The notes below the pieces were generated by a model. That model ran no database searches and had not been told where the DNA came from. It worked only from the letters and a program-made list of their open reading frames with translations. From a virus (lineage: Duplodnaviria > Heunggongvirae > Uroviricota > Caudoviricetes): a DNA stretch of 64,000 nucleotides. Positions within the stretch are counted from its first letter, which is position 1, and each line of letters starts with the position of its first letter. Below, piece after piece: positions 4,830-59,441 of this stretch. The position numbers were made by a program, and so were the translations under genes. The DNA lies in the IMG/VR virus record IMGVR_UViG_3300032167_000010, one strand, 5' to 3'.

Positions 4830-5198
4830 ATGGCAGTAAAAGATGTAAGAGAGTATTTTTATACAATGCTCAGTCAATATTTAGAAGAAAAACAAAATTT
4901 AGCTGATTTTGAAGAGGCGTTAAAAGAAGGTTTTATAACAGAAGAACAAATGCAAGAAGCGATGAACAATGTTGCAGCACTCGAAACTAATTATCATAGG
5001 CTTGTGTATATTATGTACCTTTTAGATATGCCTAAGCGTAAAGCTAAAAAAACACAATATGTAAAACAATACAAAACAATTTTAGAAGAACTTAAGAAAT
5101 TGGGAGCAGATTTAGATTCAGTAAAAGCTGAAAATTCGGATGCACTTATTCATTTTAAAGCTGCGCTTAATACGCTTAAAAAAGAAAGCAAGCAATAA
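4830..5198 (+). CDS. Hypothetical helical protein
   Basis: SD AAGGAG; followed by a terminator. Confidence 0.75.
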   Translation: MAVKDVREYFYTMLSQYLEEKQNLADFEEALKEGFITEEQMQEAMNNVAALETNYHRLVYIMYLLDMPKRKAKKTQYVKQYKTILEELKKLGADLDSVKAENSDALIHFKAALNTLKKESKQ

Positions 5199-5212
5199 AT
5201 GCTTGCTTTTTA
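5185..5212 (+). terminator. Intrinsic terminator
   Basis: Stem AAAGCAAGCA/TGCTTGCTTT plus T-run. Confidence 0.8.
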
Positions 5213-5270
5213 AAAATTATTGAATTATTAATTTATTAATTTAATAACATTAAAAATTTGCTAAATTTAA

Positions 5271-5278
5271 TGTATAAT
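5271..5278 (+). promoter_or_regulatory. Middle-type promoter TGTATAAT
   Basis: Recurrent (T/C)GTAT(A/T)AT motif; a GCTAAATTT late-like variant lies at 5260. Confidence 0.5.
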
Positions 5279-5316
5279 ATATTGTATAGTAAAATTATAT
5301 AAAGGTGAAAATTAAT

Positions 5317-6093
5317 ATGGAAAAAATTATTACTAATGTTGAACTTTTGACAAATGCGTCAGAACCATTAACTTTTTTAACCGAAAAAGGTGCACAAAAA
5401 GAAGAAGGTACTGAAATTATTACTAAGATTAAAGAGGTGCTTGAAGCTAATTCAGAAGTCTTGGCGCTATCTGCTCCTCAAATTGGTATCAATAAGCGTA
5501 TTTTTTGTTTAAGATTTAACGACCAAATTAAAACATTTATAAACCCAATTATTACAAAAAAGAAAGGTTTAAATATTGTTGTTGAAACTTGTAGCTCGAT
5601 GCCGGGTAAAGAAATTGTAATAGGCAGACCTGAAGAAATTACAGTTGTTTATTATAACGATAATTTTGATTATGAAGATAATAAACTTGTTGGAGTTGCA
5701 GCCAGTCTTTTTGATCAACAAGCTCAAATTTTAGATGGCGTACTTCCAAGTGAACTTGGGTTGGTGTCGGATATCGAAAAAGATGGTAAAATTGAAGATT
5801 CTGATTTAGCTGAAATTATTCCATTCTACAAAGATACCTTCTTACCTGCGCGTTTAGAAAGTCTAAAAACAGTTATCGAATCAGATGAAACAGCGAAAAA
5901 AGATTTTAATCATTTGAAATTTACTGAAGGCGTTATTAACGGACGTATAGCTGTTATTGAACCTGAAAGTGAAACTGCTAACAGGGCTAAGGCTAAAAAA
6001 GCTGCAAATAAAGCAATATTTAATGCAGGCAAACAACAAAAACTAATGCAGCAAGCAGAGTTTAAAAACTTTGTTAAACGTGTTAGCAGATAA
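5317..6093 (+). CDS. Peptide deformylase-like protein lacking HExxH
   Basis: LALSAPQIG (motif 1), ETCSSMPG (EGCLS-like motif 2) and DQQAQILDG in place of QHExDHLxG; SD AAAGGTG. Confidence 0.8.
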   Translation: MEKIITNVELLTNASEPLTFLTEKGAQKEEGTEIITKIKEVLEANSEVLALSAPQIGINKRIFCLRFNDQIKTFINPIITKKKGLNIVVETCSSMPGKEIVIGRPEEITVVYYNDNFDYEDNKLVGVAASLFDQQAQILDGVLPSELGLVSDIEKDGKIEDSDLAEIIPFYKDTFLPARLESLKTVIESDETAKKDFNHLKFTEGVINGRIAVIEPESETANRAKAKKAANKAIFNAGKQQKLMQQAEFKNFVKRVSR

Positions 6094-6105: not shown

Positions 6106-6258
6106 ATGGCAAAAAAGATGATAAGTTTAGAAATACCAGATGAGCTTAGAGAGGCCTTGCGTATTGAAGCATTTAAACGCTCTGTAAGTATTTCAGCAGT
6201 AATTAGACAACTGTTAGAAGAAGCTCTACGAAAGGAGTTAGAAAATGAGCAAAACTAA
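6106..6258 (+). CDS. Ribbon-helix-helix (CopG/Arc-like) DNA-binding protein, 50 aa
   Basis: Not in the ORF track. MAKKMISLEIPDELREALRIEAFKRSVSISAVIRQLLEEALRKELENEQN; SD AGGAG. Confidence 0.8.
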   Translation: MAKKMISLEIPDELREALRIEAFKRSVSISAVIRQLLEEALRKELENEQN

Positions 6259-8086
6259 AACCAACACTGACAAAATACTTGTAATCGTGGAGTCTCCAAA
6301 TAAAGTTAAAACTATTTCAAGTATTTTAAAAAATGCTGGTTACGCTAAAGCAGTGGTGCTTGCTTCAGTTGGGCATATTATGGTACTAAATGATGGCGGC
6401 CCTGCCTACAACTCAGGAATTTATCCAAAACAAAAATTTAAAATGAATTTAGCTGTAGCGGAAGGTAAACAAAAAGTTGTAAATGAAATAACAATGCAAG
6501 CCAAAAAGGCTGATAAAATTTATCTTTGCTCTGATGCTGATCGCGAAGGTGAATTAATTTCGTGGAGCATCATTAAATTTTGTAAGCTAGATACTGATAA
6601 ATGTTTTCGTGCTACTTTTCACGAAATTACTCCAAAAGCCGTTATTCAGGCATTAGAAAACCCAGTAGCTTTTGACGATAACCTTGTAAATGCTGGACTT
6701 ACTAGAATGATGATAGATAAGTTAATTGGTTATGGCTTGTCGCCACTTGCTAAAAAATATCTTGGTGCAAAATCAGTAGGTCGCTGTCAGTCAGTCGGCC
6801 TTAAACTAGTATCTGACAGAGAAAAAGAAATATCTGACTTTATACCGGAAATGTACTTTAATTTGTATTTAAATTTTACAAAAAACGGTGTATCTTTTAA
6901 GGCAAAGTATTCTGGGTATAATGATGAGGTTATTGAAAAATTTACTAAGCAGGTCGACGTTGACGCAGTTATAAATAATTGCAAAGGCGGTACTTATGTT
7001 ATTGAAAATATAAAAACAATAAAGCATCAAGAGTCTCCAAAGCCACCTTTTTGCACGGCCACTTTTCAGCAAGAAGCTGCGAACAAACTTGGATTAAAAG
7101 TTAAAGATGCGATGAGCTGTGCGCAAAAACTTTTTGAAAGTGGAAAAATTACATACCATAGAACAGACTCTACTGAACTAGCACCTGAATTTATTCCAGC
7201 GTTAAAAGCTTATATTGAAACTACCTATGGTACTGATAAATACGTTGGACCTAGAAAAGCTAAAAAGAAAGAAACTGACCAAAATGGCCATGAGGCTCTT
7301 AGAATAACAGATCCCACTTTAACACCTGCGGCTTTTGAAGCAACAGGAGCTGCTAATTTACTAGTAAAAGTTTATAGGCTAATCTGGCAACGTACTATTG
7401 CTACAGCTATGCCAAATGCCACTATTTCTGAAACTGTTTATATAATAAATAATAACAACCACAAGTTCGTGCTTAGTTCTAAAGAGCTTATAAAAGCAGG
7501 CTATAAAGAAGTTTATGAATTTGATGATGGCCAAGCACTGTGCACGCTACCAGTATTCACAGTAGGAGAGCTTTTGGAAAATACTGAACTTGAATCAGTA
7601 CAGTCATTTACAAAACCAAAAAGTAGATTTACTGAGGCTGGACTAGTAAAAGAACTTCAGTCTAGATCAATTGGACGTCCTAGTACTTATGCGACAATAG
7701 TTGAAACAGTGTTGAGCCCAACACGCGGATATGCTAATTTAGAAGAAAAGCACATTGTTCCAACTGACCGTGGTATGCAGTTAGCTGATTACTGTGATAG
7801 GTCATTTCCAACGTTAATAAATTTAAATTATACTAAAGAAATGGAAGAAAGCTTAGATAAAATTGCTGACGGAAAAACTAACTGGTTAGACTTTATGGAA
7901 ATTTTCTATAAAAATATACAAGAAGTTATTGGTACCACAAATGAGACCGGTATTGCTCCGGAGTTACCAGAAAGGGAATGTCCAATCTGCGGAAAACCGA
8001 TGGTGGTTAGAAGAAGCAGATTTGGAAAATTATTTTATGGATGTTCTACTTACCCAAAATGTAGAGGAATTATTAGCATTGACTAA
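6245..8086 (+). CDS. topA: DNA topoisomerase I (type IA)
   Basis: TOPRIM VIVESPNK and SDADREGE; catalytic ITYHRTDS; IGRPSTYA; C-terminal CPICG...YGCSTYPKC zinc ribbon. Confidence 0.96.
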   Translation: MSKTKTNTDKILVIVESPNKVKTISSILKNAGYAKAVVLASVGHIMVLNDGGPAYNSGIYPKQKFKMNLAVAEGKQKVVNEITMQAKKADKIYLCSDADREGELISWSIIKFCKLDTDKCFRATFHEITPKAVIQALENPVAFDDNLVNAGLTRMMIDKLIGYGLSPLAKKYLGAKSVGRCQSVGLKLVSDREKEISDFIPEMYFNLYLNFTKNGVSFKAKYSGYNDEVIEKFTKQVDVDAVINNCKGGTYVIENIKTIKHQESPKPPFCTATFQQEAANKLGLKVKDAMSCAQKLFESGKITYHRTDSTELAPEFIPALKAYIETTYGTDKYVGPRKAKKKETDQNGHEALRITDPTLTPAAFEATGAANLLVKVYRLIWQRTIATAMPNATISETVYIINNNNHKFVLSSKELIKAGYKEVYEFDDGQALCTLPVFTVGELLENTELESVQSFTKPKSRFTEAGLVKELQSRSIGRPSTYATIVETVLSPTRGYANLEEKHIVPTDRGMQLADYCDRSFPTLINLNYTKEMEESLDKIADGKTNWLDFMEIFYKNIQEVIGTTNETGIAPELPERECPICGKPMVVRRSRFGKLFYGCSTYPKCRGIISID

Positions 8087-17540: not shown

Positions 17541-17568
17541 TATTTTAAATACCTTACTAAAATAATTT

Positions 17569-17577
17569 GCTAAATTA
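17569..17577 (+). promoter_or_regulatory. Late-type promoter GCTAAATTA
   Basis: Exact motif. Confidence 0.7.
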
Positions 17578-17674
17578 TACGCAGGGAGCAACGGAGTCGC
17601 GATCCGTTGAGATAATTAGGCTATTTCCTGATGACCTGAAGCTGCAAAACATATTTTACAGGAGAAATATAAAA

Positions 17675-18445
17675 ATGGAAAACGCCATGACTAAGTTAGA
17701 TGGGCGTATGTATTATGTATACATGCATCAAAATACCGTAAATAAAAAACGTTATTTCGGCTTGACTTGCCAGAAGCCAGCTTATAGGTGGGGTAGGGGT
17801 AGCGCTTATAAAAATAATAAGCCTTTTTATGATGATATAGAAGCATTTGGCTGGGAAAATTTTACGCACGAAATAGTTGCTTCAGAACTAAGCAGAATAG
17901 CAGCAAAGCAACTTGAACAAAAGCTTATTGCAGAGTTTGACTCAACAAATCCTAAACTCGGCTACAATAAAACTATTGGAGGCGAGGGCCACTTGAAGTA
18001 TAAAACAGAAACGGAACGCTGCGAAGCACTGCGAGAACAAAAAAGACGTGGTAATCGTAAATTTATGCAAAACCCAGAACAGCAAGAAAAAGCACGTCGA
18101 TACTCAAAACAATACAGATTAGACAACAAAAACAACCAAAAGCTTGCGATAAATAACCCAGAAAAACGAAAACAGTATCAAGCAAAATTTTGGTCGGACC
18201 CTGCCCACAAAGAAAAGCACAGAGAAGCTCACAAAGCAAGTAATAAGCAACAGTACCGCGAAGTAGATGGTTTACGCTGTAAACTAAAAGCTCTGTATGA
18301 ACAATATCCTGCTTACTTCGCCAGTGAACAGGTCAACGCTGTGTTTGGTAAGAAAAATAGAAACTACCTAGTAAATTCAAAGAAAGTTCTGACAAAAATT
18401 TATTTAAGCATACAAACTCAGCTAGAAGACTCTGAACAAAAATAA
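17675..18445 (+). CDS. Free-standing GIY-YIG homing endonuclease-like protein
   Basis: YYVYMHQNTVNKKRYFGLT, R-W, E..LI and GYNKT motifs; basic C-terminus; SD AGGAG before ATG at 17675. Confidence 0.8.
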   Translation: MENAMTKLDGRMYYVYMHQNTVNKKRYFGLTCQKPAYRWGRGSAYKNNKPFYDDIEAFGWENFTHEIVASELSRIAAKQLEQKLIAEFDSTNPKLGYNKTIGGEGHLKYKTETERCEALREQKRRGNRKFMQNPEQQEKARRYSKQYRLDNKNNQKLAINNPEKRKQYQAKFWSDPAHKEKHREAHKASNKQQYREVDGLRCKLKALYEQYPAYFASEQVNAVFGKKNRNYLVNSKKVLTKIYLSIQTQLEDSEQK

Positions 18446-57209: not shown

Positions 57210-59441
57210 ATGCAAAGAGTTATTAAACGTGATGGCCGAGAAGTCGAATTTGATAGAGAAAAAATTATCGAAGCGATCTCGTGTGCCAACCAAGAAATTA
57301 TTAAATCCAAACAAATTGGATCTAGGAAGATTAAACAGCTAACTGCTATAGTAGAAGAGAAGTGTTCTGCTTACAAGCGAGCTATTAAAGTAGAAGACAT
57401 TAATGATTTAATTGAAGATGAACTTATCTTCCGAAATTATAATGATCTCGTTCGTGCTTTTATTAAGTATAGGCATAACAAAGAGCTGGTTAGAAAATCC
57501 AATACTACAGATGATACTATTCTCAGTCTTATTAATCTTAGTAATGAAGAACTTAAACAAGAAAACTCAAATAAGAATCCGGTAATTAACTCTACACAGC
57601 GTGATTACATGGCTGGCGAAGTAAGTAAGGATTTATCTAGAAGAATCTTACTTCCTAAAGATGTAGTAAAAGCACATGATGAAGGAACGATCCATTTTCA
57701 TGATACTGATTACTTCGCTCAGAAGATGTATAACTGCTGCTTAGTTGGATTAGATGATATGTTAAATAATGGAACCGTGGTTTCTGGAACTTTAATAGAG
57801 AAACCCCATAGTTTCGCTACTGCGTGTAACGTTGCTACTCAGATAGTTGCTCAGGTTGCCTCTAATCAATATGGCGGTCAGAGTATTACACTTTCTCATT
57901 TAGCACCCTTTGTAGACATTAGTAGAAAGAAGATTAGAGCTGAGGTTTACGAAGAGCAGGAGAAAGCTGAGGCTCTACACTATGGTGAGCCTGTTCCTGT
58001 TAGCATAGACGTAGAAAAGCTAATTGATGAAATTACAGAAAAGCGTGTAAGAGCAGAGGTAAAGCGTGGCGTACAAACAATCCAGTATCAGGTTAATACT
58101 TTACTTACCACAAATGGTCAAGCACCGTTCATCACTGTCTTCATGTATCTAAATGAAGTAGAAGATGAGCAAACTAAGAAAGACCTCGCGATGATCATCG
58201 AAGAAGTTCTTCTTCAAAGATATCAAGGTATTAAGAATGAGAAAGGAGTTTGGATCACTCCAGCATTCCCTAAACTTATCTATGTACTAGAAGAAGATAA
58301 TATTAGGGAGGGTTCTGAATACTTCTACCTTACTGAACTTGCAGCAAAGTGTAGCGCTAAGCGTCTTGTACCTGATTATATAAGTGAGAAGATCATGAAA
58401 GAGATTAAAGGTGGCTACTGTTTCCCAGTAATGGGTTGTCGTAGTGCACTATCGACCTGGTTCGACGAAAACGGTAAGGCGAAGTTTTACCAAAGATTTA
58501 ATAAAGGAGTAGTTACTGTTAATCTTCCGGATGTAGCGTGTTCTGCGCTCGGAGAAAATTACGCTAAAGACTTAGATAGTTTCTGGAAGATCTTCGATGA
58601 TACTCTAGAGTTATGCCACAGAGCTTTGTTATGTCGCTATGAAAGACTTAAAGGTACTGTAAGTGACGTAGCTCCAATCCTATGGCAGCACGGTGCAATC
58701 GCTAGACTAAAGAAAGGTGAGACAATCGATAAGTTACTTACTGGTGGATATTCAACTATTAGTCTTGGATATGCAGGATTATGGGAATGTGTAGTAGAAC
58801 TTATTGGTAAAGACCTACTAGATGAAGAAGGTCAAGCACTTGGACTTGAGATCATGAAGTACATGAACAAAAAGTGTGACGATTGGAATAAAGAACTAAA
58901 TCTTGGATTTGGCATTTATGGAACACCAATAGAAAGTACTACATATAAGTTTGCCAAAGCTCTACAAAAAAGACACGGCGAAATTGCCGGAGTTTCAGAT
59001 CGTAACTTTATTACTAATAGCTACCATGTTCACGTAGAGAAACCTGTTAATCCATTTGAGAAACTTGCTATAGAAAGTAAGTTCCAGAGATTATCTACCG
59101 GTGGTGCGATCAGTTACATCGAAACAGCTAACTTAGAAAATAACTTAGAAGCAGTTATATCAGTAATCCAATACATCTACGAAAATATTATGTATGCCGA
59201 ACTTAACACTAAGTCAGACTACTGTCATGAGTGCGGTTGGGATCGTGAGATAGAAATAGTAGAAGATGAATCAGGAAAACTAATTTGGAAATGTCCTAAC
59301 TGCGGCAACACTAACCAAGATAAGATGAACGTGGCTAGAAGAACCTGTGGTTACATTGGTACGAACTTCTGGAGCGAAGGTAGAACTCAAGAGATTAATA
59401 ATAGATACGTTCACTTAGACTGTCACGACTGTGGGTGCTAA
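57210..59441 (+). CDS. nrdD: Anaerobic (class III) ribonucleotide reductase
   Basis: N-terminal ATP cone VIKRDG; YNCCL, MGCRS, CHEC/CPNC and glycyl-radical RRTCGYIG. Confidence 0.97.
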   Translation: MQRVIKRDGREVEFDREKIIEAISCANQEIIKSKQIGSRKIKQLTAIVEEKCSAYKRAIKVEDINDLIEDELIFRNYNDLVRAFIKYRHNKELVRKSNTTDDTILSLINLSNEELKQENSNKNPVINSTQRDYMAGEVSKDLSRRILLPKDVVKAHDEGTIHFHDTDYFAQKMYNCCLVGLDDMLNNGTVVSGTLIEKPHSFATACNVATQIVAQVASNQYGGQSITLSHLAPFVDISRKKIRAEVYEEQEKAEALHYGEPVPVSIDVEKLIDEITEKRVRAEVKRGVQTIQYQVNTLLTTNGQAPFITVFMYLNEVEDEQTKKDLAMIIEEVLLQRYQGIKNEKGVWITPAFPKLIYVLEEDNIREGSEYFYLTELAAKCSAKRLVPDYISEKIMKEIKGGYCFPVMGCRSALSTWFDENGKAKFYQRFNKGVVTVNLPDVACSALGENYAKDLDSFWKIFDDTLELCHRALLCRYERLKGTVSDVAPILWQHGAIARLKKGETIDKLLTGGYSTISLGYAGLWECVVELIGKDLLDEEGQALGLEIMKYMNKKCDDWNKELNLGFGIYGTPIESTTYKFAKALQKRHGEIAGVSDRNFITNSYHVHVEKPVNPFEKLAIESKFQRLSTGGAISYIETANLENNLEAVISVIQYIYENIMYAELNTKSDYCHECGWDREIEIVEDESGKLIWKCPNCGNTNQDKMNVARRTCGYIGTNFWSEGRTQEINNRYVHLDCHDCGC

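Follow-up and report, generated by a model that had tools for sequence, protein, structure and literature searches.

A phage-borne peptide deformylase homologue without its catalytic metal site very probably represents a pseudo-enzyme with an additional C-terminal domain

In the 64,000-nucleotide stretch of viral DNA analysed in this study (hereafter, the window), we found a gene at 5317..6093 (+ strand) for a 258-residue homologue of peptide deformylase (PDF), designated P0001, in which most of the catalytic metal site is gone and which is very probably a pseudo-enzyme. The explanation that we favour overall, and consider on balance to be the right one, is that P0001 is a non-catalytic descendant of PDF that would act by binding, probably to the partner of its ancestor. 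Its distribution and conservation mark the gene as belonging to the core genes shared by a group of uncultivated jumbo myoviruses.

The window is part of a 167.8-kb virus record with an estimated completeness of 74%, and relatives of this phage reach lengths of 220-233 kb and are estimated to be 96-100% complete. The encoded proteins include a portal, a prohead protease, a major head protein, a tail sheath and a tail tube, as well as an SbcC-like protein, a helicase, a topoisomerase IA and an anaerobic ribonucleotide reductase. All window genes named here are located on one strand, at a GC content of about 33%. This gene content is that of a jumbo myovirus, which we take to come from an anaerobic habitat.

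The open reading frame of the PDF-like gene is intact from the ATG at 5317 to the TAA at 6093, and a Shine-Dalgarno sequence, AAGGTG (5302..5307, + strand), could be read 9 nt 5' of the ATG. The ORF finder had placed the start at GTG 5305; since this triplet lies inside the Shine-Dalgarno sequence, it was rejected as the start codon of the PDF-like gene. The Pfam model PF01327 (Pep_deformylase; EC 3.5.1.88) matched residues 27-143 of P0001 (E 1.8e-19, 70.3 bits versus a cut-off of 22.8), and PHROG 2890, 'peptide deformylase', matched with 2.8e-19. The JGI name for the family of P0001 is likewise peptide deformylase, and the best PDB sequence match in a phmmer search was the PDF of cyanophage S-SSM7 (3uwa, 1.7e-09). 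The score in the NCBIfam equivalog models is the criterion by which NCBI assigns the name peptide deformylase; in these PDF models P0001 obtained 46.6 and 42.5 bits, below the respective cut-offs of 162 and 103.95.

The correspondence of the active-site motifs was fixed by residue-level alignments of P0001 to the solved structures 3uwa, 1rqc and 1lme. In the PDF mechanism, the metal is held by a cysteine and by the two histidines of HExxH, the glutamate of which serves as general base. The remnant of motif 1 is ALSAPQIG (residues 50-57; 5464..5487, + strand), where the canonical GIGLAAPQ (GxGxAAxQ) has become VLALSAPQ: Gln55 is kept, and both glycines of the consensus are replaced, by V48 and A50. 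In motif 2, ETCSS takes the place of EGCLS (residues 90-94; 5584..5598, + strand), with Cys92 retained, the glycine changed to threonine and the leucine to serine. The third motif is the most degenerate, as DQQAQILDG (residues 133-141; 5713..5739, + strand) stands for QHExxHxxG, so that QHExxH reads DQQAQI, with Q134 for the first histidine, Q135 for the glutamate and I138 for the second histidine. HExxH is therefore represented by QQAQI, which leaves neither of the metal histidines and no catalytic glutamate. To our knowledge, no PDF works without both histidine ligands and the general base. Since two of the three metal ligands are missing together with the general base, P0001 should not be a metallo-deformylase, and it would act by binding and not by catalysis.

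The AlphaFold2 model of P0001, built on 128 family members, was of high confidence (pLDDT 94.4, pTM 0.78). Foldseek superposed it on 3uwa with an rmsd of 1.6 over 154 columns and a TM score of 0.88 normalised by target. VIA-align placed residues 1-158 of the model on dozens of solved PDFs with Z of 22-23 and an rmsd of 1.4-3.0 over 141-151 residues; the alignment with 3uwa had an rmsd of 1.4 over 141 residues, at 31% identity. The core of P0001, which we delimited to residues 1-143 (5317..5745, + strand) on the basis of the Pfam match to residues 27-143, Foldseek and VIA-align, is thus predicted with confidence to adopt the alpha+beta fold of PDFs.

Beyond residue ~158, the remaining 100 residues of P0001 had no counterpart in solved PDFs in the structure comparison, and the extension is therefore not simply a lengthened version of the ribosome-binding helix of the E. 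coli enzyme. In the model it consists of helices 161-189 and 191-207 and a 41-residue helix, 217-257. Two parts can be distinguished: an acidic, mostly helical C-terminal domain (residues 144-215; 5746..5961, + strand), which is common to the whole long-form family described below and has near-invariant G148 and G209, and a clade-specific long basic terminal helix (residues 217-257; 5965..6087, + strand) with a conserved AEFKNFV. The charge is divided accordingly, with -6 for the core, -8 for residues 144-223 and +9 for the last 35 residues. Searches of Pfam and PHROG with the extension returned only sub-threshold noise (ExsA_N and DUF7071 in the former, two PHROGs of unknown function in the latter), and a search of the ESM Atlas for look-alikes of residues 146-258 gave no usable match. 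When the extension was modelled by itself, from a 7-sequence alignment, the result was poor (pLDDT 61.1). The initial annotation of this DNA had reported a long C-terminal extension with a basic terminal helix, along with the retention of LSAPQIG of motif 1 and of the Cys of ETCSS and the replacement of HExxH by DQQAQI. The alignment to 3uwa bears out the reading of the motifs, and an extension of ~115 residues that ends in a helix, with a net charge of +9 over its last 35 residues, agrees with the remainder of the description.

Outside the window, some 76 kb downstream of the PDF-like gene, this genome encodes a second PDF, of 138 aa (G000:C1:92486-92905, L001:1495-1911, + strand). All of its motifs are intact (GLAAPQIG, EGCLS, QHETDHLNG), and it ends three residues after motif 3 (HLNGILI), as do the short viral PDFs of the Vp16 type. 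On the same NCBIfam models as above it reached 146.5 and 98 bits, against cut-offs of 162 and 103.95. With only 29% identity between the two proteins, we rejected the origin of P0001 as a recent duplicate of the genome's own PDF. In the records of five relatives, only the degenerate form was present and no intact PDF, and two of these five are 96-100% complete; it is thus the degenerate form that belongs to the core, with the intact-motif PDF as an accessory gene. Evidently, as judged from this distribution, the two forms are not interchangeable.

To describe conservation among close relatives, we used a word-indexed search with P0001, which gave 982 clusters at E <= 0.001. The best 120 of these 982 were taken as the near-relative set; all of them were full-length and 77-84% identical to P0001. 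Q55, C92, D133, Q134 and D140 were invariant (120/120), Q135 was present in 118 of the 120, and position 138 was aliphatic (I/L/V/M) in every one, so that HExxH, whose presence in close homologues the initial annotation had named as grounds for giving up its proposal, occurs in none of them. We aligned the codons of seven distinct genes, that of the window and six from IMG/VR loci, in which synonymous sites were saturated; dN/dS amounted to 0.04-0.13 for the PDF domain, 0.06-0.24 for residues 144-215 and 0.13-0.65 for the basic tail. The PDF-like gene is thus under strong purifying selection, and the loss of HExxH is conserved under it, which had been proposed as a check. The idea that the protein is a pseudo-enzyme, put forward at the same time, gains support from this selection together with the clade-wide loss of both histidines.

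These data also bear on the possibility that an active phage PDF has here been reduced to a decaying allele or pseudogene. Three catalytic residues have indeed been lost in P0001, and a PDF with intact motifs exists elsewhere in the same genome. However, the ORF is intact in every relative, the same substitutions recur in all 120 of them, and synteny is kept around the gene; the low dN/dS at saturated dS, the very confident AlphaFold2 model and the two near-complete relatives that hold the degenerate form alone are equally at odds with decay. Conservation, dN/dS and synteny led us to reject this explanation as extremely improbable.

To collect the wider family, we searched 1.84 billion representatives of clusters at 50% identity exhaustively with HMMER and obtained 2471 matches. 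About 120 of the best 150 of these were long forms, i.e. proteins of 190-288 aa that could be aligned through the extension, and the long-form phage family comprises at least ~120 clusters at 50% identity. In a maximum-likelihood tree of phage and metagenome sequences only, the backbone of which was weakly supported, the window protein was placed in a clade (SH-aLRT 99) made up of 23 clusters at 50% identity, and both histidines are absent throughout this clade. The loss of HExxH is accordingly taken to be ancestral to it. Twelve of its 23 representatives were scored as having no ligand at all, one of these, P0122, being a fragment in which the region is missing.

In a census of the active site, 133 representatives were classified, 14 short forms among them. 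Cys, His, Glu and His were all kept in 7 long forms, five of which have the motif-1 Gln changed to Ala; 10 long forms kept the three metal ligands and lost the catalytic Glu, 26 had the Cys only, 15 were partial and 64 had no ligand. Such graded loss of the active site is the pattern expected if catalysis is dispensable for the function of the long-form family. In P0158, P0161, P0170, P0205 and P0233, we noticed that Cys and HExxH are kept while motif 1 reads SAPAIG, with Ala for Gln, a pattern of loss opposite to that of P0001.

Residue retention, computed over 116 long-form cluster representatives, was low for the catalytic positions: 37% for the Cys corresponding to C92 (42/115), 18% for the first His, 10% for the catalytic Glu and 20% for the second His. 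Retention at other positions was 99% for A53 (115/116), 96% for G57 (111/116), 97% for R61, 96-99% for N76-P77, 94% for each of R104 and G141, and 95% for each of G148 and G209. The motif-2 glutamate (E90), which pairs with R104, was retained in 89% and the motif-1 glutamine (Q55) in 87% (101/116). This pattern indicates constraint on the scaffold and the motif-1 strand, but none on the metal site; no other stretch in the family is conserved as well as that strand with its Gln. The retention of that Gln fits a ligand groove that has been kept, but could equally be structural. The charge of the extension was also compared across the family: its middle part is acidic, with a mean charge of -9.4 and a charge of <= -3 in 99% of long forms, whereas a basic C-terminal tail occurs in only ~45% of them, being always present, at +6 to +10, in the near family of the window protein.

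Among deposited phage genomes, megablast gave no match, and tblastn gave only core-domain matches to ordinary PDFs with P0001 and P0161 and none with P0149. The long form is thus absent from the deposited phage genomes searched and is present in virome-derived UniProt entries named 'polypeptide deformylase'. Locus scans for distant family members returned none for P0161, P0149 and P0221; only P0144 gave two loci.

The genomic surroundings of the gene are conserved as well. In close relatives, the order is SbcC-like gene, eight small genes, PDF-like gene, small gene, topoisomerase IA, a gene for a 350-430-aa protein and an AAA ATPase, and the same order was found in the more distant phages L021 and L020, with synteny holding down to ~42-51% identity. 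In these two syntenic orthologues the cysteine is also lost (ETSVS in L021, IETNL in L020), which implies that the conserved function needs neither the histidines nor the cysteine. In the window, the small gene encodes a 50-aa ribbon-helix-helix (RHH) protein of the CopG/FitA-like type (6106..6258, + strand), starts 13 nt downstream of the PDF-like gene and overlaps the start of the topoisomerase gene; its matches to PF22513 (9.1e-06) and PF07878 (2.4e-05) were both just under the cut-offs. The RHH gene is conserved in close relatives, and L020 and L021 have an unrelated gene of 68-71 aa in its place. The conserved downstream neighbour, DNA topoisomerase IA (6245..8086, + strand; PF01131, 1.4e-102), contains Toprim, Topoisom_bac and zinc ribbon domains. 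Given this arrangement, the PDF-like gene likely heads a transcription unit with the small gene and the topoisomerase IA gene.

On its 5' side, the gene is divided from the preceding block of small genes by a terminator-like, GC-containing hairpin followed by a T run (5185..5209, + strand), located directly after the stop codon of the upstream gene. The scan had assigned this hairpin to the minus strand; its stem is symmetric, and we read it on the plus strand by eye. Among relatives the stem differs in sequence yet still pairs, being GCAAGCA/TGCTTGC in the window and GCGAGC/GCTCGC or GACGAG/CTCGTC elsewhere, and we interpret these changes as compensatory substitutions. The AT-rich spacer that follows (window 5185-5278 with the hairpin) contains direct repeats, TTATTAATTT, and then TTGCTAAATTTAATRTATAA, which holds a short palindrome. 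A sigma-70-like promoter candidate, TTAAAA-17 nt-TATAAT (5250..5278, + strand; 10/12 consensus matches), overlaps TTGCTAAATTTAATRTATAA. Five of six relatives share the latter motif upstream of the gene, and the window has a single copy of it; for this reason, we rejected it as a member of a class of shared phage promoters. This region might serve as a promoter and/or as an operator bound by the RHH protein, whose gene comes after the PDF-like one.

If P0001 acts by binding, its likeliest partner would be that of its ancestor, i.e. the N-terminal end of the nascent chain and/or the ribosome surface round the exit tunnel. A groove could be supplied by the remnant motif-1 strand with its Gln and, in this clade, affinity for rRNA by the long basic terminal helix; during infection, the outcome might be altered co-translational N-terminal processing or altered handling of nascent chains. 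The conserved motif-1 strand with its Gln and the basic terminal helix of this clade are the features that point to the ancestral partner. The initial annotation had likewise suggested that the protein may occupy the exit site or trap formylated nascent chains, which is plausible. We nevertheless put forward the nascent N-terminus or the exit-tunnel surface as the specific partner only tentatively, and the fuller proposal, that the pseudo-deformylase family docks at or near the exit tunnel of the host ribosome or on nascent N-termini and so blocks or redirects PDF, MAP, trigger factor or SRP, seems to us rather doubtful. The limited occurrence of the basic tail, in less than half of the long forms, speaks against ribosome docking, as does the failure of the extension to superpose on the C-terminal helix of E. 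coli PDF past residue ~158. The family-wide part of the extension is strongly acidic and thus ill-suited to docking on rRNA. Moreover, the neighbouring genes belong to DNA metabolism (SbcC-like, RHH, topoisomerase) and not to translation. As to the groove, the conservation of Gln55 may be purely structural, and the free variation of the cleft residues across the wide family argues against a family-wide need to bind formyl-Met in the old pocket.

Alternatively, the PDF fold may have been reused as a scaffold for a role outside translation, an explanation that we consider unlikely on present evidence but regard as the main competitor. In one version, P0001 would bind DNA or protein and work together with topoisomerase IA and the RHH protein, which are co-transcribed with it. 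In another, it would counter host defences or assist in host takeover, with its acidic helical domain imitating nucleic acid or attaching to a basic host protein. Reuse as a scaffold accords with the constant position of the gene directly upstream of the small gene and topoisomerase IA and downstream of SbcC-like genes, although phage gene order is weak evidence of function, and with the acidity of the helical domain as a family-wide feature; against it, the extension has no homology to DNA-binding or known anti-defence domains in Pfam, PHROG or the ESM Atlas. Both versions agree with the free variation of the old active-site residues across the family, and with the finding of no MAP or formyltransferase gene in this genome and no tRNA in the window; against both, it is the motif-1 strand, Gln included, that is best conserved in the family, and this hints at the ligand groove of the ancestor.

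It could also be supposed that P0001 is an altered enzyme, either an amidase or esterase that uses the thiol of Cys92 or a deformylase with an unconventional metal site formed by Cys92 and Gln/Asp. The invariance of Cys92, Q134, D133 and D140 in the 120 nearest relatives and the conserved strand of the substrate groove would agree with this, and in some bacteria activity does not require that the three motifs be exactly conserved (PMC12690207). However, both histidine ligands and the general base are absent together, 12 of the 23 clade representatives (the fragment P0122 counted) are without any ligand and, above all, syntenic orthologues lack the Cys, which disfavours residual or altered catalysis; we consider it improbable. 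P0001 may, for all that, carry out a different, metal-independent chemistry. The non-catalytic, binding descendant of PDF thus remains the explanation that we prefer.

When compared with characterised proteins, P0001 shares its phage origin and the PDF core fold with the PDFs of S-SSM7 (3UWA/3UWB) and of Vibrio phage Vp16 (5MTC). Short viral PDFs are active, with all three motifs perfect and a truncated C-terminus (PMC5591237, PMC3660681), whereas P0001 lacks HExxH and the motif-1 glycines and has a helical extension of ~115 residues; it is the second PDF of the genome (138 aa, ending in HLNGILI) that fits the description of the short viral, type 4 or Vp16-like, enzymes. Further parallels are the weakly active or inactive type 3 PDFs of some Firmicutes (second def genes, S. 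aureus, S. pneumoniae), Archaea and trypanosomatid mitochondria (PMC5591237, PMC12690207), which, like P0001, have substitutions in conserved motifs and are kept beside or instead of an active PDF. These proteins are, however, cellular and, compared by description, are substituted mainly in motifs 1 and 2 and have C-termini that are not conserved; in P0001 the loss falls chiefly on motif 3, the gene is phage-borne and a conserved C-terminal domain has been added. The type 1B PDF of E. coli has a ribosome-binding C-terminal helix (Bingel-Erlenmeyer 2008, as cited in PMC5591237). It resembles P0001 in its core fold (Z 22.8), and the helical appendage of the P0001 clade also ends basic, but this appendage is six times longer, mostly acidic and not superposable past residue ~158, and the catalytic site is absent. 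The two-part architecture of P0001 was found again in A0A8S5MKA8 of Siphoviridae sp. ctrpg19 (BFVD; 217 columns, TM 0.86 normalised by target), for which the name 'polypeptide deformylase' is an automatic annotation only. Among open-access full texts, we found no paper on phage PDF homologues without a catalytic site or on their extension. Inactive homologues of PDF are thus known from cells, and what appears to be new here is their occurrence in phages with a novel, conserved C-terminal domain.

PDF genes have been ranked with the most abundant auxiliary genes that phages carry (PMC7162821, PMC5591237), and in surveys of huge phages PDF is listed as translation-related and as a sign of boosted protein maturation, with no comment on the active site (PMC7162821). 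As most long-form members cannot be deformylases, automatic 'peptide deformylase' names credit phages with more enzymatic capacity than they have. Given the size and diversity of the family and the selection acting on it, the dead fold must be of use to the phage. If P0001 and its relatives do bind at the exit site or to nascent N-termini, this would amount to a novel means by which phages take over their hosts, with the dead groove acting as a reader of the N-terminus. Such binding would also make the family a source of natural PDF-fold binders with graded active-site loss, in which the passage from an essential enzyme to a pseudo-enzyme could be studied.

Some further features of the window and of its relatives concern the host and gene mobility. 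The large subunit of an NrdD-like anaerobic ribonucleotide reductase (57210-59441; PHROG 487, 2.4e-202), which is followed by a 165-aa ORF, indicates an anaerobic host. A PDF-like protein 81% identical to P0001 is encoded on the 26-kb contig L019 (CALCHR010000172.1), which was binned with an uncultured Bacteroidales metagenome-assembled genome; this binning may be a weak hint of the host or an artefact. Finally, an ORF for a homing endonuclease of the GIY-YIG type (17567-18445; PHROG 314/7168/5123) is located just upstream of the portal region.
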